Source of the DNA: an uncultured Myxococcales bacterium | Lineage (GTDB): Bacteria > Myxococcota > UBA4151 | DNA: 11,660 bases | Direction: 5' to 3' | Assembly: GCA_964013405.1 (NCBI GenBank) | Contig: CAXGWI010000110.1 | Coordinates: 1-11,660 of the forward strand | Part shown: one piece after another, positions 1 through 11,660 of the stretch | Numbering within the stretch: position 1 is the stretch's first letter | Layout of the letters: each line of letters starts with the position of its first letter | Translations under genes and position numbers: made by a program | The notes under the pieces: model-generated | What the model was told of the DNA's origin: nothing | What the model saw: only the letters and a program-made list of their open reading frames with translations | The model's database searches: none

Positions 1-1526
1 ATGTCCATCTGGATGGCGGTGATGCCGTCCCGAGTACCGCAGATCTTAAAGTCCATGTCACCGAGATGATCCTCGTCACCGAGAATATCAGACAGGATGG
101 CGTAATCGTCGCCTTCCTTAATCATGCCCATGGCAATACCGGCCACGGGCTTGGCCATCGGCACACCGGCAGCCATCATGGCCATGGAACCACCACAGAC
201 GCTGGCCATGGAGGAGGAGCCGTTGGACTCGGTGATCTCACTGACCACGCGGACGACGTAGGGAAATTCTTCCTGGCTGGGAACCAAGGGTGCAAGGGCC
301 CGACGGGCCAAGGCACCGTGGCCATGCTGACGACGGTTCGGACCAATCCGACCGGTCTCACCCACACAGAAGGGGGGGAAGTTGTAGTGCAACATGAAGG
401 TTCGATCCTCCATGCCATTCAGGGATTCAACCCGCTGAGCATCCCGGCCCGTGCCGAGGGTCACCGCCACCAGGGCTTGGGTCTCGCCGCGCTGGAACAT
501 GCTCGAACCATGGGTGCGGCCCAGCACGTCGACCTCGGTGTCGATGGCACGGATCTCGTCATAGGCACGCCCACCGATCCGCTTCTTCGTCTCAAGGACG
601 GAGCCACGCATCATGTGGTGCTTCACCTCGCCGAAGCAGGTGCTCACCTCATCGCTGCGGGCTGCCAAGGCTTCATCGGCAAACAACTCGTCCTTCACCG
701 CCTTCTTCACCACAGCAATCTGGGCGTAGCGGTCCAACTTCACAGGCACTTGCAGCGCGTCTGCTAGACCATGGTTCATGGCCGTCTTCTCGACCAATGC
801 GAGAAGATCTTGGTCCAAATCCTTGTCCACAAATTCAATCTTGGCGGATCCTACTTCAGCGGCCATCTCTCGAATGGCCGTGATCATCGGCTGGGCTGCG
901 TCGAAAGCCAAGTACAGGGCTTCGATCACATCCGCTTCGGCGGCTTCGTTGGCACCGCCTTCGACCATCACGATGGCCGAATCGGAACAGCCGACCATCA
1001 TGTCGATGTCGGCAATACCGCGTTGGGTAAACGTGGGGTTGATGACGTACTCGCCATTCACCCGGGCCACGCGCACGCCAGCCACAGGGCTCTCGTCACC
1101 CCAGGGGATATCGGAGATGGCAAGAGCTGCAGAGGCAGCGGTCAGAGATGCAGCGTCGGCCTCGTACTCACCATCGTAGCCGATGACCGTCGAGATCACC
1201 TGAACCTCGTAACGCCAGTCTTTGGGGAACAGCGGCCGGCAGGTGCGGTCGATGATCCGGGCGATGAGAATCTCATCGGGGCGAGGGCGCGCTTCACGGC
1301 GGAAGTAACCCCCGGGGATCTTACCAGCAGCGTACTGCTTCTCTTGGTACTCAACGCTCAGCGGAAGGAAGTCCCGATCGATGGGCTTGCCACTTCGAGC
1401 TGCGGTCACCAGGAACTGGGACTCACCATTGCTGGCCATAATGGAATAGGCCTGCTTGGCAATTTTGCCGGTCTCTAGGACCAACGTGGAGTTCCCGTAG
1501 GGAATCTCCTTACGACAGATGGACAT
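1..1526 (-). CDS. pnp: Polyribonucleotide nucleotidyltransferase (PNPase), 3'-truncated by the window edge (first ~508 codons)
   Basis: Manual translation of the minus strand from ATG at 1526: MSICRKEIPYGNSTLVLETGKIAKQA...DFLPLSVEYQEKQYAAGKIPGGYFRREARP...RIIDRTCRPLFPK...HYNFPPF...ESNGSSSMAS...VAGIAMG...GDEDHLGDMDFKICGTRDGITAIQMD. The catalytic Asp residues fall at codons 486 and 492, as in E. coli. SD-like AAGGGG lies 6 nt upstream, and the gene sits downstream of rpsO as usual. Confidence 0.98.
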   Translation of the reverse strand, partial: MSICRKEIPYGNSTLVLETGKIAKQAYSIMASNGESQFLVTAARSGKPIDRDFLPLSVEYQEKQYAAGKIPGGYFRREARPRPDEILIARIIDRTCRPLFPKDWRYEVQVISTVIGYDGEYEADAASLTAASAALAISDIPWGDESPVAGVRVARVNGEYVINPTFTQRGIADIDMMVGCSDSAIVMVEGGANEAAEADVIEALYLAFDAAQPMITAIREMAAEVGSAKIEFVDKDLDQDLLALVEKTAMNHGLADALQVPVKLDRYAQIAVVKKAVKDELFADEALAARSDEVSTCFGEVKHHMMRGSVLETKKRIGGRAYDEIRAIDTEVDVLGRTHGSSMFQRGETQALVAVTLGTGRDAQRVESLNGMEDRTFMLHYNFPPFCVGETGRIGPNRRQHGHGALARRALAPLVPSQEEFPYVVRVVSEITESNGSSSMASVCGGSMAMMAAGVPMAKPVAGIAMGMIKEGDDYAILSDILGDEDHLGDMDFKICGTRDGITAIQMD

Positions 1527-1532
1527 AATCGT

Positions 1533-1679
1533 CCCCTTCTGACCCTGAATCAGGGTCTATGTAAGGGGTGTGCACCTGCGGGGAGAGCGAAAAGAATGTT
1601 GGACGGGTCGCAGCCTGACGGCCCACACAACATCCTTCTCATCCCGGTCAGGTGGACACCCATAGGCCCCCGCAGGGGC
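1533..1679 (-). promoter_or_regulatory. Structured pnp 5' leader: long imperfect stem (1566-1661) plus SD-occluding hairpin (1533-1568)
   Basis: Complementary arms read directly from the sequence: gggtgt-g-cacctg (1566-1578) / caggtg-g-acaccc (1649-1661); cggg/cccg; atgttg (1596-1601) / caacat (1628-1633); gaccctg-aat-cagggtc (1541-1557) flanked by cccctt (1533-1538) / aagggg (1563-1568). The position matches the RNase III-processed pnp leader known in E. coli. Confidence 0.6.
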
Positions 1680-1711
1680 GAAAGAGCAGCTTTCAAACCC
1701 TGAAAGCTGCT
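1679..1711 (-). terminator. Hairpin downstream of rpsO; weak intrinsic terminator/attenuator or stabilising stem
   Basis: Perfect 11-bp stem agcagctttca (1685-1695) / tgaaagctgct (1701-1711) with a 5-nt loop, 12 nt after the rpsO stop. It is followed on the minus strand only by CUUUCG, a short U-tract compatible with read-through into pnp. Confidence 0.6.
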
Positions 1712-1723
1712 GATGTCTTGGGC

Positions 1724-1993
1724 TTAGCGCCGGATGCCGAGATCGGCGATCAGGGACTTGTAGCCCTCCAAGTTCGTCTTCTTCAGGTAGTCGAGGAGAC
1801 GACGGCGCTTGGACACGATCCGCAGCAGGCCTCGCCGGCTGTGATGGTCCTTGTGATTCTTCTGAAAGTGGGGCTGCAGATCGAGGATGCGAGCCGTCAT
1901 CAGCGCGATCTGCGCTTCTGGGCTGCCCGTGTCACCGGGGTGACGTTGGTACTTCTCGAGGATCGCCTCACGTTGAACCTTGGTAATCGCCAT
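1724..1993 (-). CDS. rpsO: 30S ribosomal protein S15 (89 aa)
   Basis: [36 protein letters not shown]...[24 protein letters not shown]...LGIRR carries the S15 signatures DTGSPE and DHHSRRGL. Start reassigned to ATG 1993 (SD AGGAG at 2002-2006), giving the canonical 89 aa. Confidence 0.98.
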
Positions 1994-2008
1994 TTTTCTT
2001 ACTCCTAG

Positions 2009-2041
2009 CCATGCCATCTTGGCGCCCCGACCGCGGCATGG
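2009..2041 (-). promoter_or_regulatory. Hairpin in the rpsO 5' UTR abutting the SD; candidate S15 autoregulatory leader
   Basis: mRNA CCAUGCCG ... UGGCAUGG forms 7 Watson-Crick pairs plus one G.U, ending 2 nt before AGGAG. Confidence 0.4.
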
Positions 2042-2220: not shown

Positions 2221-4713
2221 TCAGGGCGCGTGATAGATCACATCAAAGCCGGTGATCCTCGGATCGAGTTGTGCGTTGTTGTTCCGGGTCAAGACCAGTT
2301 GGGTCTTAAAGTCAGTGATGTTCTGGTAGCGGTTGCCTTCCAGTGGAATCACGGTGGTCCCGTTGGTGATGGGCAGCCCATCGAACCAATTGTTGCCCCC
2401 ATTACTAAAGCTCGTCGACGTCGTGACACCGTCGACGATGCCGGTTGCATGGACGCGCACGCCGGCCATATCGACCGACTCAACACCGACCGGGAGGTCG
2501 ATCAACAGATTCTTCGTTCGCAGGCTGCCACTTGCCGATGGGGCCGGATTGGGCCCAGCTCGCAGCGCCAGTGCCTCGACACCACGGATCGCGCGGCGGT
2601 GACTTCCCACCATCACAGGCCGGTCCCAGAAACCATCGTTCACCGCGATGCCAGGCTGGCAAACCATGGCCCCGTCCATCCACAAGGCCGGCCGGTTTTG
2701 GGTATCGAAACGAATCTCCATGAAGTGCCAGCGGACAGCTTCGAAGTTGTCCCCCCAAATCCCACTAAGTTCATCGGTGACATCACAAGCGGCCTGGCCG
2801 TTCACGATAAACTGCAGTTCATGGCTATTGTTGAAAGCATTATGACGAACGTAGAGCCCCGTATGTAGGCTTGGCCAGCAACTGTTTACCAACTGTCCGA
2901 AGCCGGCGTAAGCATACTCATTGTTGCTTCGTCCAGTCTCTAGGTTCATCTCCAACTGGAAGGGTGTGTTCTGGTTCCGCTGCTGGGCGAGCGTATTCAC
3001 ATTCCACCAAATTTGGTTGGTGCAACTGCCGGCTCCCTGAAGTCGCCAGCTTTCCCCTTCGCCCCGTTCGTCCACATCCTCTAGTCGGGGCTGATTCAGA
3101 TTGCTGTACCACTGGGGTGTAGGGTTGTCCTGACCCGAGTTCCAGATGGGAAAGACCGTATTGATGGACATCCCCTCAGCCTGGGTAATGCGTATGGCCG
3201 AGCGATAGCCAAAGCGATCGGGGTCCGTCATGTCGTAGCTCAGCGTCACGAGATTCTCGACCGCGCACTGTGCTGAGCAGCCATCAAGGGCCTCATCATT
3301 GCCGTCGTCGCAGGCCTCACCCTCAGCATCATCCAAAGTACCGTCGCCACAGTAATGGGTTTCTCCTGCGGCTTGCGCGCATTCCGGTGTGCACACTTCG
3401 CAACTCTGCTGCCCGTAGTCGCAGTCCCGACGATTGTTATCGCCCTCATCGCAGGCCTCGCCGTCGTCCCCCTGCACAACCCCATCACCACAATAGGTGA
3501 CCGTCCCGTCGACCTGCTGACATTCGGGGCTGCACACAACACAGGCCTGCTGACCATAAGCACAAGCCTCCGTATTGGCCTCACCGTCATCGCAGGCCTC
3601 GCCGTCATCAGCCTGGAGTGCTCCGTCACCACAGTAGGTCGTTGTTCCGGCCACCAGGGCGCAAGTCAGGTTGCAGACTTCACAGGATTCCAAGCCGTAG
3701 GTGCAGGCTTCGGTGTTGTCGTCGCCCTCATCACAGGCCTCGCCAGCCGGCTCATTCAAGACACCATCGCCACATTGAGGCAGGCTGCAGTCACCGTCGC
3801 AGGTCTCGCTGACATCCCCGGTATCGCAAGCCTCATAGCCCGCAGCGCCGGCTCCTAGATCGCTCCTCGTGATCCCGTCACCACAGACGGCCAGGCTACA
3901 CGCGTTCGTGCAGGCATCCCGATCCTCGATGTTGCCGTCATCACAGGGCTCGACCCCATCCTGAACATGGCCATCGCCGCAGGCCGCCTGGGCACAGGTC
4001 GTTGTGCAGGCATCGGTTTCTACCACGTTGCCGTCATCGCAGGCCTCGAAGTCTGGATCCCCGGCCGGCAGGTCAACCCGCACAAAACCATCACCGCAAC
4101 CCGCGAGCGCGCAGTTGTCGAGGCATGAATCCGTATTGTCCGTATTGCCATCATCACAGGCTTCGAAGCCTTCCGCGCCCGCCGCGAGGTCGGTGCGGAT
4201 GAGCCCATCACCGCAGGCCGCCGCTGTACAGTCATTTCGGCAGGCATCTGTCTCGACTGAATTGCCATCGTCGCAGGCTTCTCCGTCGTCGGCGACCCCA
4301 TCACCACATCCAGCGAGTCGGCAGTCGCTTCGACAGGCTCCGTCAGGGGCGTCGGTGTTCCCATCTCCCTGATCACACTCCTCGTAATCTAGATCACCCT
4401 CGGCGAGATCGGTACGGCGCACGCCATCACCGCACGAAGCCAAACTGCAATCCAAGCGGCAGGCGTCATTGTCGGCTTCGTTGCCATCGTCACAACCTTC
4501 AACACCGACATGGACGAAGCCATCGCCACAACTGGCGAGCTTACAGTCTTCGGTACATTCATCCCGGTTGGAGGTGTTACCATCATCGCAGGCTTCCCCG
4601 ACACCGACGATGCCGTCACCGCAGACCACTGGGTCTTCACCTTCCGGTAGGTCCATGGCGGTACAGCCGACCCACCCCAAACAAAGACAGAGTCCAATCG
4701 TTCTCAATGCCAT
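2221..4713 (-). CDS. Predicted lipoprotein with 12 myxococcal-type cysteine-rich (CGDG...EACDDGN; DUF4215-like) repeats and a C-terminal beta-rich region, possibly ConA/LamG-like (~830 aa)
   Basis: Within ORF 2221..4830. The likely start is ATG 4713 (GGAGG at 4724-4728), giving signal peptide MALRTIGLCLCLGWVGC with a lipobox-like WVGC. There are 12 CGDG motifs. The C-terminal third contains WHFMEIRFD...ALWMDG, reminiscent of ConA-like lectin strands. Confidence 0.85.
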   Translation of the reverse strand: MALRTIGLCLCLGWVGCTAMDLPEGEDPVVCGDGIVGVGEACDDGNTSNRDECTEDCKLASCGDGFVHVGVEGCDDGNEADNDACRLDCSLASCGDGVRRTDLAEGDLDYEECDQGDGNTDAPDGACRSDCRLAGCGDGVADDGEACDDGNSVETDACRNDCTAAACGDGLIRTDLAAGAEGFEACDDGNTDNTDSCLDNCALAGCGDGFVRVDLPAGDPDFEACDDGNVVETDACTTTCAQAACGDGHVQDGVEPCDDGNIEDRDACTNACSLAVCGDGITRSDLGAGAAGYEACDTGDVSETCDGDCSLPQCGDGVLNEPAGEACDEGDDNTEACTYGLESCEVCNLTCALVAGTTTYCGDGALQADDGEACDDGEANTEACAYGQQACVVCSPECQQVDGTVTYCGDGVVQGDDGEACDEGDNNRRDCDYGQQSCEVCTPECAQAAGETHYCGDGTLDDAEGEACDDGNDEALDGCSAQCAVENLVTLSYDMTDPDRFGYRSAIRITQAEGMSINTVFPIWNSGQDNPTPQWYSNLNQPRLEDVDERGEGESWRLQGAGSCTNQIWWNVNTLAQQRNQNTPFQLEMNLETGRSNNEYAYAGFGQLVNSCWPSLHTGLYVRHNAFNNSHELQFIVNGQAACDVTDELSGIWGDNFEAVRWHFMEIRFDTQNRPALWMDGAMVCQPGIAVNDGFWDRPVMVGSHRRAIRGVEALALRAGPNPAPSASGSLRTKNLLIDLPVGVESVDMAGVRVHATGIVDGVTTSTSFSNGGNNWFDGLPITNGTTVIPLEGNRYQNITDFKTQLVLTRNNNAQLDPRITGFDVIYHAP
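3256..4623 (-). repeat. Intragenic tandem array of 12 degenerate Cys/Asp-rich repeats (31-47 aa)
   Basis: CGDG occurs at ORF residues 70, 101, 133, 175, 206, 245, 284, 316, 353, 400, 447 and 494. At DNA level tcgcaggc/tcacaggc and ccatcaccgca-like words recur. Confidence 0.9.
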
Positions 4714-4824
4714 CAAATCACGACCTCCACCCCTCAGCGTAAGAGGCGAGCAGGAATTGAACAAGGGACCTGGCCGACGATATTGCTCAGCTGGTCCAGC
4801 CCTCGGGCTGGTCGCCCCTGAAGC

Positions 4825-4840
4825 CGGCACGGAAAACGCA
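4825..4840 (+). promoter_or_regulatory. Candidate sigma54 (-24/-12) promoter for the lipoprotein gene at 4885
   Basis: CGGCACGGAAAACGCA has GG (4826-4827) - N10 - GC (4838-4839) with GGCACG matching the consensus TGGCACG-N4-TTGC. It lies 44 nt upstream of the ATG. Confidence 0.5.
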
Positions 4841-4884: not shown

Positions 4885-5937
4885 ATGCGATCGGCGGCAC
4901 TTATTCTTGGCTTCATCATAAGCGCCTGTGGCAGCGATGATCCCATCAATATCGTAGCGACCGACGCGGGAACTGCCCGGGATCACCAGCGCCCGAATGG
5001 CAACGTGGATGCTGGCCCAGACGACCGGCCGAGCCGGCGAGATGTCGGCCTAACCATTCCCGACGGCGGCTTTGGCGATGAGATCGACGCGGGGAACGAC
5101 AGCCTAGACGGCGGTGTCTTCCCGGTCGACGAGGACGCCGGGGCCGAGCCCGCTGGCGACGCGGGGATTCGGCCGGGGCAGGATGCAGGTCAGGGAGGAG
5201 AAGCGAATGACCCGGAGCGGAGAAGCCGACGACTTCAACAACGCCAGTTCATCTGTGACGGTGAGCGCCTGTCGACGGCGACATTCACTTGGACCGATCG
5301 CCGCCTGACAGGGATTCAACTCGATGAAATGGGCTTCCCGGTCTTCAATTGGCGGATCGAGCATGAAGCGGGGCGCCCGACCCGGGCCCGAAGCAACGTC
5401 GAAGGGTGGAACCTGGAGGCTCGTTGGACGTATGCTGGTGAGCAACTCATCTCAGCCTTCATGGGTGAGCCCGAAGACTCCATCGAATGGCGCTTCGAAT
5501 ACGATGGCTCAGAACGTCCGGTCGTCATGACCCTCACCGAAGACTTCGACGGTCAACGCAGTGAACAGCGGGCGGAGGCCAGTTGGGGTGTCGATGGGCC
5601 TGAGGACTTCTTCGGCACGACCCTGAGCTACGCCGACGGTCGCCCGAGCGAGGTGAATGACCTGCTGCCAGTCCTGTATGACAACGATATCTTTCGGGGC
5701 GTTGGCGCCGGCACATTCGCCCTCCGCTATGGTCCTGATGGGGCGCTGTCTGAATTGGATCTTCTCGACGGCTGTCTCTACCGCTTTACCTGGGCTCCGG
5801 GCGAGCCTGAACACTATCGAGGCAGCTTGGGCCTAGGCGACTTTGCCATGCTCTACGATGTGGAAGGTCGCTACGCCGGGGACTTCGATCCGGCCCGCGA
5901 ACTCTACCTCGTGATCCTGCTGCTCCTGGGGGAGTAG
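4885..5937 (+). CDS. Hypothetical lipoprotein (350 aa): acidic DAG-repeat linker followed by YD-like beta-hairpin domain
   Basis: Strong SD AAGGAGG. Signal peptide MRSAALILGFIISAC with lipobox Cys15. Eight D[A/G]G motifs in residues 27-102, then repeated [FWY]-x-[YW]-x-x-x-R/L hairpins (FTWTDRRL, WTYAGEQL, FEYDGSERP, LSYADGRP, LRYGPDGAL). Confidence 0.8.
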   Translation: MRSAALILGFIISACGSDDPINIVATDAGTARDHQRPNGNVDAGPDDRPSRRDVGLTIPDGGFGDEIDAGNDSLDGGVFPVDEDAGAEPAGDAGIRPGQDAGQGGEANDPERRSRRLQQRQFICDGERLSTATFTWTDRRLTGIQLDEMGFPVFNWRIEHEAGRPTRARSNVEGWNLEARWTYAGEQLISAFMGEPEDSIEWRFEYDGSERPVVMTLTEDFDGQRSEQRAEASWGVDGPEDFFGTTLSYADGRPSEVNDLLPVLYDNDIFRGVGAGTFALRYGPDGALSELDLLDGCLYRFTWAPGEPEHYRGSLGLGDFAMLYDVEGRYAGDFDPARELYLVILLLLGE

Positions 5938-5954: not shown

Positions 5955-6911
5955 TCAGGCTTGTTCCGTGACACCCAGAGCCCGGAAACGGCGGATCCTC
6001 TGATCCACCAAGGCTGCAGGTTCCAAGTCCGATAACTCGTCCAAAGCGGCAGCCACTGTCGCAGCCAACGCATCAGCCGCGGCCCGATGGTCCCGATGAG
6101 CGCCCCCGCGCGGCTCATCGATGATCCCGTCAATGACGCCGAGCTTGTGGAGATCCTTCGCGGTCAAACGCAGCGCCTCTGCAGCATCTTGGCCCCGGCC
6201 CTGCTCGCGAAAGAGGATCGCACTGGCAGCCTCTGGGCTGATGACCGAGTAGACGGAGTTGCTCAGCATGAAGACCTTATTGCCTACACCGATGGCCAGC
6301 GCCCCACCAGAGCCGCCTTCACCGGTCACAACACAGATGACCGGGACCTCAAGACTCATCATCGCCTCAAGGTTGTAGGCGATGGCCTCGGCCTGACCCC
6401 GCTCTTCGGCATCGAGCCCCGGATAGGCTCCGGGCGTGTCGATCAGGCACACGATCGGCAATTTGAAGCGTTCAGCCACCCGCATAATCCGCAAGGCCTT
6501 ACGATAGCCTTCCGGTCGCGGCATGCCGAAATTCCGGCGCATATTTTCGTGGGTATTGCGACCTTTTTGGGTGCCGACCAGCATCACGTTGCGGCCCCCC
6601 AAACGAGCCAAACCACCGATGATGGCTGCATCATCGGCAAAATGACGATCGCCATGGAGTTCCAAAAATCCCTCGAAGGCCAAGTCCGCGTAATCAAGGG
6701 TGTAGGGGCGCTGGGGGTGTCGGCTCAACTGGACCCGCTGCCACCGGCCTAAGTCGGCGTTGAGACGATCCTCAAGATGCTCTTGGACCTCTTCGAGCCG
6801 AGGGATCACAGCGGCAACATCTTCGTCCTGCGCCGCGATCGGACCTAAGTCAGCGATACGGTCAGCCAACTCGACCGCGGGTTTTTCGAACGGCAGAACA
6901 TGGCGTTTCAT
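5955..6911 (-). CDS. accA: Acetyl-CoA carboxylase carboxyltransferase subunit alpha (318 aa)
   Basis: Motifs LPFEKP, WQRVQLSRHPQRP, ELHGDRHFADD, RNFGMPRPEGYRKALR, IDTPGAYPG, AEERGQAEAIA, GEGGSGGALAIG, YSVISPE and EPRGGAHRD. Start ATG 6911 overlaps the cmk stop (ATGA) and has GGAGG upstream. Confidence 0.97.
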   Translation of the reverse strand: MKRHVLPFEKPAVELADRIADLGPIAAQDEDVAAVIPRLEEVQEHLEDRLNADLGRWQRVQLSRHPQRPYTLDYADLAFEGFLELHGDRHFADDAAIIGGLARLGGRNVMLVGTQKGRNTHENMRRNFGMPRPEGYRKALRIMRVAERFKLPIVCLIDTPGAYPGLDAEERGQAEAIAYNLEAMMSLEVPVICVVTGEGGSGGALAIGVGNKVFMLSNSVYSVISPEAASAILFREQGRGQDAAEALRLTAKDLHKLGVIDGIIDEPRGGAHRDHRAAADALAATVAAALDELSDLEPAALVDQRIRRFRALGVTEQA

Positions 6912-7576
6912 CGGCTTTGTTCCTCCCGGGCCCACCTGACGATACGATGGACAACCTGGTCAATGGTCAATCCATCCGTGACCAGCTCCCGAGCATCCGA
7001 AGCCCGGACCAGCGGCGCCTCAGCCCGGCTGCTGTCTCGGGTATCTCGGGCGATAATTTGTTCCAGTAATTCAGCGACAGGGTGGTGTTCACCCTGGGCC
7101 TTGAGCTGCTCATGGCGCCGCCGGGCCCGCTCTTCCGGGCTGGCCGTTAAAAAGACTTTGAGGTCCGCATCCGGAAAGACAACGGTACCGATATCCCGCC
7201 CCTCAAGAACGGCTCCCGGCGCCTGGCGCCCCAGTCGGCGCTGCTCCTCAAGGATGGCCGCACGCACGCTCGGAAGCGCACTGGAGATGGATGCAAATGC
7301 ACTGATCTCCGGCGCCCGGATGGCCTGACTCACGTCCTCATCACCGAGATGAACTCGGTCGCCTTCGAGATGGATGTCGACGCGACGAGCCACCGCCCCC
7401 ATCCCCGCCTCATCGTCGGGCGCGAGGCCGGCCCGCTGTCCAGCCAGCGCAATACAGCGGTACAGAGCGCCGGTGTTGACCTTCACGAAGCCGAGGGCTT
7501 CGGCCACCTGATCACTGACCGTCGATTTACCGCTGCCGGCGGGACCATCGACGGCAACGACGAAGCCCGTACTCAC
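6908..7576 (-). CDS. cmk: Cytidylate kinase (222 aa)
   Basis: P-loop VAVDGPAGSGKST, TGALYR, VLEGRDIGTVVFPDADLKVFLTASPEERARRR and RDTRDSSRAEAPL. The GTG start overlaps the hisC stop (GTGA). Confidence 0.97.
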   Translation of the reverse strand: MSTGFVVAVDGPAGSGKSTVSDQVAEALGFVKVNTGALYRCIALAGQRAGLAPDDEAGMGAVARRVDIHLEGDRVHLGDEDVSQAIRAPEISAFASISSALPSVRAAILEEQRRLGRQAPGAVLEGRDIGTVVFPDADLKVFLTASPEERARRRHEQLKAQGEHHPVAELLEQIIARDTRDSSRAEAPLVRASDARELVTDGLTIDQVVHRIVRWAREEQSR

Positions 7577-8691
7577 CCCAGAATGTTGTCACAGGCAGCC
7601 CATAGCCGCTTGTGATTATCCTCGGTTCCGATGTTGATTCTCGCACAGTTCGGCAAACCATAACCCGTCATGGGCCGGAGGATGACCCCTGCCTCGAGAA
7701 AGCGGGGAAACAGGGGATCAAAAGGCTGCCCAAAATCACCCAAGACGAAGTTTGTCTGGGAGTCCCAGGTCTTGACACCGTAACCCTGTAATCCGGCTCT
7801 GAGCTCCGGTAGCTGGGCTTCGACCAGCCCGCGAGACTGAATCAAGAACGCCTCATCTTCGAGGGCGCCAACGGCCGCTGCCTGAGCCAGTGCATTGCAA
7901 TTGAAGGGGGCTCGAGCCTTGTTGAGCAAACCCACCATGTCCCGATCACCAATGCCGTAACCCACCCTAATCCCCGCCAGACCATAGGCCTTGGAAAAGG
8001 TTCGCATGGTCATGGTCCGAGGTCGACCGAGCGCCAAGGAAATTCCATCGGCCTGATCCCCGGCCCGCACGAACTCTTTGTAGGCCTCATCGAGAATAAA
8101 GACGACGTCCTCGGGAATCCGCTGAATGAATTCAGCCATCCAATCAGCGCCAACCCAACTCCCGGTGGGATTGTTGGGGTTGGCAAGAAACACCATCTTG
8201 ATCTTGGGATCCGACTCCAGGGCCTCAATCATGGCGTCGACGCCATAGGAGAAGTCTGGGTCCATCGGCACATGGACGACCTCTCGGCCATTGGAGCGGC
8301 AGCAGAGCTCGTAAATGATGAATGTCGGGGTCCAAACCGCGATCTTCTCGTCGGGCTGAAGCATCGACTTCATCAGTAACTCGATGACCTCGTTGGTGCC
8401 ATTGGCCGGCAACAGGTTGTCAAAGGTCACGCCGTAGGCCGAGTACCGACGGCAGAGGGCCTCTTTAAGATAATAGGCAGAACCGTCTGGGTATAGATTC
8501 AGTTTGGGCAGGGCCGCTTGGATCGCAGCGACAGCCTTCGGGGATGGCCCAAGGACGTTCTCATTGCTCGCTAGTTTCGCGATTTGCTGCTCGGCCAGCC
8601 CGAACTCGCGGGCGGTCTCCTCAATGGGCTTCCCCGGCGGATAGATCGGTAGACTTTCATACCATGGGGGTCCGAGACGACGTCCGTTCAT
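7573..8691 (-). CDS. hisC: Histidinol-phosphate aminotransferase (class I/II PLP aminotransferase, 372 aa)
   Basis: Motifs YPPGKP, KLASNEN, YPDG, NGTNEVI, FLANPNNPTG, LDEAY and RTFSKAYGLAGIRVGY (PLP lysine). SD GGAGG upstream. hisC near cmk is a common proteobacterial arrangement. Confidence 0.92.
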   Translation of the reverse strand: MNGRRLGPPWYESLPIYPPGKPIEETAREFGLAEQQIAKLASNENVLGPSPKAVAAIQAALPKLNLYPDGSAYYLKEALCRRYSAYGVTFDNLLPANGTNEVIELLMKSMLQPDEKIAVWTPTFIIYELCCRSNGREVVHVPMDPDFSYGVDAMIEALESDPKIKMVFLANPNNPTGSWVGADWMAEFIQRIPEDVVFILDEAYKEFVRAGDQADGISLALGRPRTMTMRTFSKAYGLAGIRVGYGIGDRDMVGLLNKARAPFNCNALAQAAAVGALEDEAFLIQSRGLVEAQLPELRAGLQGYGVKTWDSQTNFVLGDFGQPFDPLFPRFLEAGVILRPMTGYGLPNCARINIGTEDNHKRLWAACDNILG

Positions 8692-8743: not shown

Positions 8744-9499
8744 CTACCTCGAGCCGCTGTTTGATTGGCGAAGCTTCTTGAGTCGTTGTTCAAATCGCTT
8801 GATCAGCGCCGGGCTATTGCTCTGTTTAAAGCTCTTTTGCTGCTCCGAAGCGATCAATTGAGCCAATGGCTTTGCGGCCATCCCGTCCCCCGCAGCCGCC
8901 AAGGTCTCCACGGCCACTTCTCGTACCTTCGCATAGGGCGACCGCAGCCACGGAATCACCGTACTCGCGACCTCTGCTCGGCGTGGGTCCTCAGGTCCGG
9001 CCTGGTGGAGCGCCGCACCCAAGCCGTAAGCCAGCCAGACGCAGACCTCCTGGTCGGGGGCTGCGATCCCCTCAGCTAAACACAGCTGCTGCAGCGCTCG
9101 AAACCGAGCGAGGAGCGTCGGCACCACGACCACATCTCCTGTGGTCGCTAGGGTCTCGATGGTGCGGGCTCTGAGTTTCAGGTCACCATCGTTTAACAAA
9201 GGCTTCAGCAAGGTCACGAGCTTGGCGGGGCTGAAACAGCGCTGGGTCTGCAGCAAGGCCAGCAGCACTTCGTGGCGGGCCGGATCACTGCTCCCTCGCA
9301 TGACCTTATGCCGAAGCCGCCCGAGGGCCTTCAGCAGTCGGGGGTCATCATAAAAGTCATGGCGTAGGCCCCCACGGCAGGCCCCAGCCAGTTGCTCTAG
9401 ACCGGCTTTCTGCTGACTTGCGTCCGGCCGCAAGAACCCCCGAATCGCCTCTTGGGGCGTGGTGGGTCCCGCCAACAGGAGTAGCAGCAGTCCCGGCAT
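8744..9499 (-). CDS. HEAT-repeat-like hypothetical protein (251 aa) with short hydrophobic N-terminus
   Basis: HEAT/PBS-lyase-like units LLKPLLNDGDLKLRARTIETLATTG and VIPWLRSPYAKVREVAVETLAAAGD. N-terminus MPGLLLLLLAG. The start overlaps the upstream stop (TAATG at 9497-9501). Confidence 0.7.
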   Translation of the reverse strand: MPGLLLLLLAGPTTPQEAIRGFLRPDASQQKAGLEQLAGACRGGLRHDFYDDPRLLKALGRLRHKVMRGSSDPARHEVLLALLQTQRCFSPAKLVTLLKPLLNDGDLKLRARTIETLATTGDVVVVPTLLARFRALQQLCLAEGIAAPDQEVCVWLAYGLGAALHQAGPEDPRRAEVASTVIPWLRSPYAKVREVAVETLAAAGDGMAAKPLAQLIASEQQKSFKQSNSPALIKRFEQRLKKLRQSNSGSR

Positions 9500-10560
9500 T
9501 AGATCTCGTCGAACATGAAGGGGGCGACCGCGTCGATTCGGTCCTGGAAGCCGTCAGGGTAAAGGAACCACAGGGTCGCGGCCAACGAACTCAGAAGGCT
9601 GTTGCCATCTTGGGGGGTGAAGCAGAATCCGGCCAACTCTTGATCGTTCCTCAGGTGCAGTGTGGACTCCGCAACCACCGTCTGATTCAAAATGCGACCG
9701 AAGAAACCGTGATCCCGGCCAAAGCTAAACACCGAGTTGGCGCTTTTACGCTCGGTCATGGCGACCCATTGGTTCTGCCGCAGTCGATCTTTGATCTCGT
9801 CGAGGCTGAAGGGACGAGCGAGTTGTAGGTTGAAGTGCATGGCGTGCATGTACTGGGTGTTCAACTTCATGGCCGAGCTAAAGAGCTTGGCGTCGTGTCC
9901 CAGGGTATTGAGGAGGTGCCAGGCATCTCGGGCATGGTGGGTACCGAAGGCTCCGTCTTTGTGACTCCCAACCTCGGGGCTGGGCAGAAAACTGCCGTCC
10001 TGACTGATGTCATTCGCCCGGCGCAAGAGAAGGAAACGACCATCAACGAGATCAATCCCCCCTTTTTTGTTCTCGGTAATCGTCGTCACGATCCGGCTCA
10101 GGTTGTGGGTGTTGCAACTCACCACATGGATGTAGCGGTCCTTCCCTGGCACCAGGGATTCATCATTAATGCCCCGAGCGTACATCTTGCCAAAACCAAA
10201 CTCACTGCCCTGGGCGACAAAGCCTTTCGGGCCATCGAGATGCTTGTAGTACCGCTCTTTGTTGGCATTGCCCGCCGGGGTGCAGTCGATAACGACATTG
10301 GCCCGTTCCAGAGCCTCGGCGTGGGTCATGCTGACATGATGACCAAGGGCCTCAAAATCAGAACGGACATCGGGATCGGTCGACAGGAGGGCTCCCCGAC
10401 GAATACAGGCTTCAACCTTGGCCCGCTCCCGCCGGATCGGGGTCCGCTTATGAAAGGTGACTTCATCGATACCGAAAGCCTCCTTGAAGTGACAGAGGAG
10501 CCCGAGCAGGGGCTCTCCGATGGTTCCGGTGCCGACGACGTGAACGATCTTCTTGGTCAT
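9499..10560 (-). CDS. Divergent archaeal-type (class II) glyceraldehyde-3-phosphate dehydrogenase-like NAD(P)-dependent oxidoreductase (353 aa); substrate unproven
   Basis: Colinear motifs GTGTIG, HKRTP, VIDCTP, QGSE, VVSCNTH (Cys149), RRAND, GTHHARD and TQYMHA (His239) match the archaeal GAPDH order GYGTIG, KTxP, DCTP/DATP, QGGE, VVSCNTT, RRAAD, PSHHGPD and TTLMH. It lacks the class I hallmarks GFGRIGR and ASCTTNCL. Confidence 0.75.
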   Translation of the reverse strand: MTKKIVHVVGTGTIGEPLLGLLCHFKEAFGIDEVTFHKRTPIRRERAKVEACIRRGALLSTDPDVRSDFEALGHHVSMTHAEALERANVVIDCTPAGNANKERYYKHLDGPKGFVAQGSEFGFGKMYARGINDESLVPGKDRYIHVVSCNTHNLSRIVTTITENKKGGIDLVDGRFLLLRRANDISQDGSFLPSPEVGSHKDGAFGTHHARDAWHLLNTLGHDAKLFSSAMKLNTQYMHAMHFNLQLARPFSLDEIKDRLRQNQWVAMTERKSANSVFSFGRDHGFFGRILNQTVVAESTLHLRNDQELAGFCFTPQDGNSLLSSLAATLWFLYPDGFQDRIDAVAPFMFDEI

Positions 10561-10647: not shown

Positions 10648-10725
10648 CGCAAACAAGAGCTCTGCACCGGGAATTTGCCCTCGGCGCTGGCTCACGCGAG
10701 CATAACGCGGACGCGAGGTAGCCCT

Positions 10726-11660
10726 GTGAACGACCGACTTTTCGCCGGCAAATACCATCTGAAGCGCCGGCTTGGTCTTGGCGGCATGGCAGAGGTGTGG
10801 CTGGCCGATCTCCAGGGCCCCCAGGGCTTTCAGAGAGAATTGGTCATCAAGCGGATCCTTCCTCACCTCGCCGATGACGAGAACTTTCTGACGATGTTCG
10901 AGGACGAGGCCCGCCTGGCAGCCCAACTCAACCACCCCCATGCAGTGCGGGTCGAGGAACTCGGCAAGGAAGACGGCACCTGGTACCTCGCCATGGAGTA
11001 TCTCGATGGGGCCGACCTCAGGGACTTAGCCCGACGGGCCCGTGGCCTGCGTCAACCCATCCCCCTTGAAGTCATCCTACAAATCGGCGCCGACGTTGCC
11101 TCCGCACTCCATTACGCCCATACGCTCTCAGATCAACAGGGCCGGCCCCTCAACCTGATCCACCGGGATGTGAGCCCCCACAATGTGATCGTGACGCGTA
11201 ATGGCCATGCCAAGCTGGTCGACTTCGGGATCGCTCGGGCCGAATCCAATCAGGTCAAGACCCGAACCGGAATGGTCAAAGGCAAGAGTGGTTATATGAG
11301 CCCAGAACAGGCCTTAGGACGAGACCTTGATGGGCGCAGCGATCAGTTCGCATTGGGGATCGTCCTCTACGAACTCCTCCTGAGAGCGAGGCTCTTTCGT
11401 GGCGATTCGGACATGGCGGTGATGCGTAAGGTCGTAGCCTGCAATATCCCGCCTCTTTTGAGCATCGCTCCAGACATTCCAGAGTCGGTCCAAAAGGTCA
11501 TTAACAAGACGCTGCAAAGGGCCCCTGAGGATCGCTATCCTGATGGGAACGCCTTATCCGAAGCCTTGCTTTCCTGCCTCCACGATCTCGGGCTCCGCGG
11601 AGGGCACGGCAAAGTGGGCACATGGGTGCAAGACATGCTCAAGTCCTCCGTTGTCCTGCC
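10726..11660 (+). CDS. Hanks-type serine/threonine protein kinase, 3'-truncated by the window edge
   Basis: Manual translation from GTG 10726 (GAGGT upstream): MNDRLFAGKYHLKRRLGLGGMAEVW...LVIKRILPHL...FEDEARLAAQLNHP...LAMEYLDG...IHRDVSPHNVIV...KLVDFGIARA...GMVKGKSGYMSPEQ...SDQFALGIVLYELL...PEDRYP. The frame is open to the end of the window. Confidence 0.97.
   Translation, partial: MNDRLFAGKYHLKRRLGLGGMAEVWLADLQGPQGFQRELVIKRILPHLADDENFLTMFEDEARLAAQLNHPHAVRVEELGKEDGTWYLAMEYLDGADLRDLARRARGLRQPIPLEVILQIGADVASALHYAHTLSDQQGRPLNLIHRDVSPHNVIVTRNGHAKLVDFGIARAESNQVKTRTGMVKGKSGYMSPEQALGRDLDGRSDQFALGIVLYELLLRARLFRGDSDMAVMRKVVACNIPPLLSIAPDIPESVQKVINKTLQRAPEDRYPDGNALSEALLSCLHDLGLRGGHGKVGTWVQDMLKSSVVL

Follow-up and report, generated by a model that had tools for sequence, protein, structure and literature searches.

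Does a bacterial gene that resembles the archaeal-type (class II) glyceraldehyde-3-phosphate dehydrogenase (GAPDH) encode a true GAPDH, or an enzyme whose active site has been reshaped for another substrate? The question is raised by a 353-amino-acid open reading frame (P0001) on the minus strand at 9499..10560 of the window, i.e. the whole 11,660-nucleotide stretch of DNA analyzed here. A preliminary description of this DNA leaned towards the second alternative. The motifs on which it relied were all recovered from the window translation in the order claimed: GTGTIG (residues 10-15), HKRTP (37-41), DCTP (92-95), QGSE (117-120), VVSCNTH (146-152), RRAND (180-184), GTHHARD (206-212), MH (238-239) and PQDGN (316-320). 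The plus-strand translation of 9499-10560 was tried as well and is not the gene.

The gene likely heads an operon on the minus strand. Its stop codon overlaps the start of a HEAT-repeat gene (8744..9499, TAATG; context only), followed downstream by hisC (7573-8691), cmk (6908-7576) and accA (5955-6935), and a Ser/Thr kinase gene that runs off the end of the window diverges from it on the plus strand (10675..11658). This gene order is shared by L002 and L005, two close relatives within Myxococcota, and is not that of L008, L018 or L134; the head-to-head kinase gene is also found in close relatives. The earlier proposal that the gene is a resident and not a recent insertion is borne out: its GC3 is 0.71 against 0.67-0.73 in five neighbors, the family occurs in four of the five other genomes of the source genome's taxonomic family, the protein groups with Myxococcota relatives in the tree, and the neighborhood is conserved in relatives. 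Across the phylum the family was found in 16 of 251 genomes, a count that leaves out G171, whose copy has an internal stop. Neither pgk nor tpi lies in the window, as noted before; both sit with the only class I gap gene of the source genome in a gap-pgk-tpi cluster on contig C55. Elsewhere in the window we observed an 869-aa myxobacterial Cys-rich repeat protein (DUF4215; 2221-4830, minus strand) with an unannotated C-terminal region, a 350-aa lipoprotein-like reading frame (4885-5937, plus strand) that matches nothing in Pfam or NCBIfam and is also present in L002 and L005, and what we take from the translations to be an ordinary rpsO-pnp pair (3-2017, minus strand).

Profile and fold comparisons both place the protein closest to class II GAPDH, as the preliminary description had proposed. 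In the NCBIfam scan the window protein scored 81.6 bits with NF003251 (cut-off 185, E 5e-23) and 60.1 bits with TIGR01546 (cut-off 232.9, E 2e-16), matches too strong to be due to chance; the best match is to class II and yet falls far below its cut-offs; two other family members reach 106 on the class II profile. Among the class I GAPDH and erythrose-4-phosphate dehydrogenase profiles (TIGR01534, TIGR01532), TIGR01534 gave 17.7 bits against a cut-off of 367.2, the class I motifs GFGRIG and SCTTNCL are absent from the window protein, and class I enzymes are described as having a different catalytic His and different phosphate sites. Asd profiles gave 12-13 bits. The four best PDB sequence matches are archaeal class II GAPDHs, with which the family profile aligns end-to-end (E 5e-36 to 9e-30, the lowest for 1b7g). 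The AlphaFold model (pLDDT 96.9) superposes on archaeal 2czc with Z 37.8 and rmsd 2.0 Å over 321 residues, clearly ahead of the next entry (Z 27.5); values were 27.5 for class I, 25.9 for Asd, 24.9 for malonyl-CoA reductase, 22.8 for ArgC and 20.4 for acylating aldehyde dehydrogenase. The top six Foldseek matches are all class II (TM 0.77-0.81, class I at most 0.69), at about 20% identity to the solved structures, and ESM Atlas ranks unnamed bacterial clusters first and type II GAPDH after them. Asd, ArgC, archaeal malonyl-CoA reductase and acylating aldehyde dehydrogenase were in no case the best profile or predicted-fold match.

The catalytic residues of class II GAPDH are Cys140, Ser139, Thr142, His219 and Asn141; one phosphate site is formed by Ser139, Asn141, Arg167, His193 and His194, Arg167 and Arg168 hold the phosphate of glyceraldehyde-3-phosphate (G3P), and a Lys at position 32 is associated with NADP use (PMC12041015). 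By alignment, the catalytic set is present in the window protein as C149, S148, T151, H239 (9844..9846) and N150, the first three and N150 lying in the stretch S148-H152 (10105..10119). The putative phosphate sites align as R180-R181 (10018..10023) and H208-H209 (9934..9939), and K38 (10447..10449) aligns with the corresponding Lys of 1b7g and 2yyy. Among 270 locus rows, which overlap and include three sets gathered with motif patterns, these residues are invariant except for H209 (Q in three) and T151 (A in one); K38, the arginine pair, Cys149 and His239 show no exception in 270/270, phage copies included. In 40 family rows gathered without motif patterns, every listed residue is present in all 40. 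The earlier statement that Cys149 and His239 are kept is thus borne out, both being conserved and aligned with the class II pair.

What has changed lies beside these residues. After the Rossmann motif GTGTIG (10516..10533) the sequence continues with E16-P17 in place of the K-R of class II, SCNTH stands in 270/270 family rows where SCNTT stands in 6/6 canonical rows, and PQDGN (9601..9615) replaces archaeal HQESI with the Gln retained and D-G-N specific to the family. E16-P17, H152, A210 and D318-G319-N320 are family signatures adjoining the catalytic residues, and of the residues near the site E16, P17, H152, D318 and N320 are both invariant and family-specific. The description of the active site as remodelled therefore goes too far, since all class II catalytic and anion-binding residues are retained; judged from the aligned sequences, the active site is unaltered where it matters. 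The hint of NADP use drawn from the HKRTP loop fares better in one part than in the other: the invariant K38, aligned with the archaeal Lys, is consistent with it, and R39 and T40 of the same motif vary.

The family to which the window protein belongs is large, extending over uncultured bacteria, some archaea and giant phages. Of 8000 scored candidates 7159 pass E 0.001, and in species genomes at least 573 of 598 stretches were confirmed as family. The best 119 relatives are 61-73% identical to the window protein, and representatives down to 26% identity mostly retain SCNTH. The best 80 genome loci belong to Myxococcota, Acidimicrobiia, Acidobacteriota, Entotheonella, Krumholzibacteriota, Eisenbacteria and others; some members are named from Thermoplasmata archaea. 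NCBI records call the copies "hypothetical protein", and JGI often names them GAPDH. Alignment A2 excludes seven apparently frameshifted representatives and all sequences shorter than 320 aa. A quick maximum likelihood tree placed 99 of 100 family rows in one clade (SH-aLRT 97), P0200 being unplaced. This clade stands apart from both sets of comparators, six bacterial canonical class II rows from plasmids and eight class I rows; long branches meet in the tree, and canonical archaeal class II was absent from it. The motif counts and the tree agree with the proposal of a distinct subfamily marked by SCNTH.

With archaeal class II GAPDH (NF003251/PRK04207, TIGR01546; 1CF2, 1B7G, 2CZC, 2YYY) the family shares fold, domain order, the catalytic Cys/His, both phosphate sites and the cofactor-loop Lys, and its gene is sometimes found downstream of pgk. 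It differs in its low identity and sub-threshold scores, in SCNTH for SCNTT, GTIGEP for GTIGKR, HHA for HHG and PQDGN for HQESI, and in a range that is mostly bacterial, with Thermoplasmata and phage, unlike that of canonical class II. The mobile "type II GAPDHs" of bacterial plasmids (e.g. WP_027888532.1, Meiothermus) are of the same fold class and have SCNT, RR and the catalytic His in common with the family; however, they are only 25-30% identical, their motifs read SCNTT and SHQGPD, their cofactor loop has an Asp, and they form their own clade (support 100). The SCNTH family hence works like class II GAPDH and falls outside its cut-offs and its SCNTT motif. In terms of sequence it is a separate, conserved SCNTH/PQDGN family, distant from archaeal class II GAPDH. 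We found no description of it in the literature searched, a search outside which most subscription papers lie. The family also has Cys-less offshoots (P0149, P0158, P0169, P0219, P0244, P0268 and P0124); P0149 is named from a Myxococcota genome, and four offshoots cluster near the clade of the window protein.

We consider it probable that the window protein is a phosphorylating, NADP-preferring GAPDH of class II fold that acts mainly in gluconeogenesis, beside the class I GAPDH of the source genome. By analogy with class II enzymes, Cys149, activated by His239, would attack 1,3-bisphosphoglycerate, forming a thioester and releasing phosphate, with the two phosphates held by R180/R181 and by S148/N150/R180/H208/H209. 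Hydride transfer from NADPH, whose 2'-phosphate likely rests on K38, would then give G3P. In a pair of the gapI/gapII type the enzyme would be the anabolic member; in genomes that lack class I, as most Tectimicrobiota do, it would carry the GAPDH step alone, and large phages would use the gene as an auxiliary metabolic gene. The chemistry of the family is probably ordinary.

Two lines of evidence point to G3P as the substrate. First, the family was the sole GAPDH found in 12 of 17 genomes of Tectimicrobiota, the phylum of the Entotheonella genome G008. The 17 are kin and not all of them complete, though G020 and G027 are single-chromosome records; the family is present in 13 and a class I match in five, i.e. 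12 have the family only, four class I only, one both and none neither. Canonical class II was above cut-off in none of the 17, and pgk was present in all nine tested of the 12 family-only genomes. In G008 and G005 a pgk-tpi-secG cluster (the tpi and secG labels are presumed) lacks the usual gap in front. Secondly, in 4 of 80 metagenome loci the gene immediately follows a pgk in the same orientation; we infer these four loci to be archaeal as the tree groups them with Thermoplasmata-named proteins. At a further metagenome locus, L203, a class I gap-pgk pair stands head-to-head with the gene, and pgk was near the gene in none of the 80 best genome loci. A general replacement of class I was rejected: it holds only in Tectimicrobiota, and class I is kept in 46 of 50 carriers examined among the best 80 genome loci. 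The same was seen in 76 of 80 Acidimicrobiia carriers; the four small genomes lacking class I may simply be incomplete. In three genomes in which the family is the only GAPDH found (G020, G027, G055) we observed a lone divergent PGK (235 bits vs about 515; L102:6221-7564, L103:5510-6940). Contig C3 of G008 carries a duplicated block of about 6 kb that adds two further copies of the gene (L096:7003-8073 and 13050-14171), one with GTGTRG as its Rossmann motif.

An enzyme for another substrate, be it erythrose-4-phosphate, a semialdehyde, an acyl-CoA or a C2-C4 compound linked to the glyoxylate shunt, with His152 and PQDGN changing the specificity, seems to us unlikely. The invariance of the signature residues speaks for it, as do its retention in genomes, even ones of about 1 Mb, that also have a class I gap in intact form, and its tight linkage to aceBA in Acidimicrobiia. 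Nevertheless, both phosphate sites appear intact by alignment, the family is complementary to class I in Tectimicrobiota and adjoins pgk in some loci, Asd, ArgC and acyl-CoA reductases fit the model 13-17 Z units less well, and the glyoxylate link is absent in Myxococcota. Residues, distribution and gene context thus point to the GAPDH step and lend no support to the different substrate proposed earlier. Erythrose-4-phosphate, which had been suggested by name, is unlikely as a family-wide role in vitamin B6 synthesis, and this version was rejected since four of the five carriers tested have PdxS and no PdxJ. The source genome is the one with PdxJ, and no separate epd was found in it, so that erythrose-4-phosphate oxidation there must fall to a GAPDH-family protein; a side role on this substrate is possible in that genome.

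The direction of the reaction is suggested by the neighbors: aceBA operons, head-to-head ppdK and pntAB argue for gluconeogenesis. Among the 80 best genome loci the gene lies downstream of aceA in 17 and of aceB in 16. A divergent regulator often beside the aceBA-linked loci, which we take to be RamB-like, had no NCBIfam match at 1e-25. In 201 Acidimicrobiia genomes an isocitrate-lyase match was present in 69 of 80 carriers vs 13 of 121 non-carriers, numbers to be read with some caution since kin are non-independent, genomes are incomplete and the weaker matches may not be AceA. Forty-five of the Acidimicrobiia carriers are genomes of about 1 Mb, presumably Actinomarina-like. In all seven of these that were examined, ppdK stands head-to-head with the gene and pntAB (pntB) is close by; aceA-aceB follow the gene in two of the seven, both chosen for an adjacent aceA. 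Partial ppdK matches in three of 80 genome and four of 80 metagenome loci lie in HprK/PTS operons and were taken as PtsI and left uncounted.

The source genome itself has neither aceA nor ppdK; it does have PEP carboxykinase, PFK and pntAB. Isocitrate lyase is present in none of the six genomes of its taxonomic family, and in 8 of 16 Myxococcota carriers vs 163 of 251 genomes of the phylum. An obligate part in the glyoxylate cycle was consequently rejected, given the absence of isocitrate lyase from the source genome and its family and the lack of enrichment in the phylum. For the window copy the direction is thus assigned from the family, from K38 and from the class I gap of the source genome, which has an Asp in its NAD loop. 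In haloarchaea gapI is glycolytic and gapII gluconeogenic (PMC10817205), a two-isoenzyme arrangement like that of the source genome and likely with the same reaction.

It could be argued that the enzyme is a true GAPDH that runs in both directions, or in the glycolytic direction to supply NADPH, and that the gluconeogenic neighbors are lineage-specific. This would fit the 12 of 17 genomes of Tectimicrobiota in which no other GAPDH was found, the presence of PFK and the absence of an aceA/ppdK link in the window's lineage, and the phage copies near nucleotide-synthesis genes (ribonucleotide reductase), where NADPH would be useful. We regard it as improbable, since two groups of actinobacteria have the gene in one operon or head-to-head with aceBA and ppdK, and since class II serves gluconeogenesis in organisms that have both classes (PMC10817205). 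Rather doubtful, in our judgment, is a second chemistry conferred by the invariant His152/Glu16/Asp318/Asn320 shell, whereby GAPDH activity would suffice to replace class I in Tectimicrobiota and the main task would be a hitherto undescribed NADPH-linked reaction, connected with PPDK and the glyoxylate shunt, of a small aldehyde or acyl-phosphate; it would explain retention beside class I in genomes of about 1 Mb as well as carriage by large phages. That the protein is a non-catalytic or mainly moonlighting homologue (scaffold, regulator) is very improbable given Cys149, His239 and the arginine pair throughout the locus rows, even though the family has Cys-less offshoots (those listed above, P0124 aside) and a class I paralogue without the Cys is frequent among carriers.

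In IMG/VR, 85 of 96 pattern matches encode relatives of the window protein, of which 79 loci, 45-54% identical, were kept. Their neighbors include PhoH, exonuclease, DnaB, ribonucleotide reductase and DNA polymerase. Misfiled cellular DNA was rejected for the four viral records searched (186-284 kb, CheckV 100%), all of which carry a Gp23 capsid gene. In the tree, 12 of 17 viral rows fall in one clade. GenBank phages and plasmids yielded no member of the family, only matches of 25-30% identity, and the single phage copy scanned falls in no PHROGs family. In 2 of the 79 viral loci (L269 and L270:10412-13065) aceB-aceA lie about 3.3 kb downstream of the gene. A recurring phage block (L233-L309, e.g. 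L244, L258, L299 and L300) comprises PhoH, a protease, an exonuclease and a glycosyltransferase; some blocks add a peptide deformylase, and some a gene that by eye we take to be tubulin-like. Huge phages are known to carry aceA and aceB (bioRxiv 10.1101/2025.02.27.640493; PMC5332604), these glyoxylate-shunt auxiliary genes being likewise carbon-assimilation genes in large phages; the main texts of both reports contain neither "GAPDH" nor "glyceraldehyde", and their supplements might list the gene.

If our reading is true, a large third GAPDH lineage, and with it a deep branch for GAPDH evolution, is missed by the NCBIfam cut-offs and kept as "hypothetical" in NCBI records, and metabolic models would err in leaving most Entotheonella-type genomes without a GAPDH. 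The family would moreover mark gluconeogenic capacity in streamlined actinobacteria and add a central-carbon auxiliary gene for large phages.

Some further contexts of the gene were observed. It lies downstream of metK-sahH in 5 of 80 genome loci (L010, L011, L016, L029, L035) and diverges from an HprK/PTS operon in 4 of 80 (L023, L060, L063, L067); the metK and HprK/PTS labels, as opposed to that of sahH, are presumed from recognition. Two unrelated groups repeatedly have a YbdK-type carboxylate-amine ligase in the vicinity of the gene (L211, L218, L219, L230, L320), and the source genome has such a ligase on another contig. Many carriers have a tandem class I pair (L322-L332), i.e. a canonical gap and an upstream paralogue, as at L322:4909-5922, L325:5730-7043 and L330:4217-5416; at least two class I matches were present in 71 of 80 Acidimicrobiia carriers vs 13 of 121 non-carriers. 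Of the 11 pairs examined, 8 have an upstream paralogue that lacks the catalytic Cys; it is kept even in genomes of about 1 Mb and may be a regulatory pseudo-enzyme subunit.
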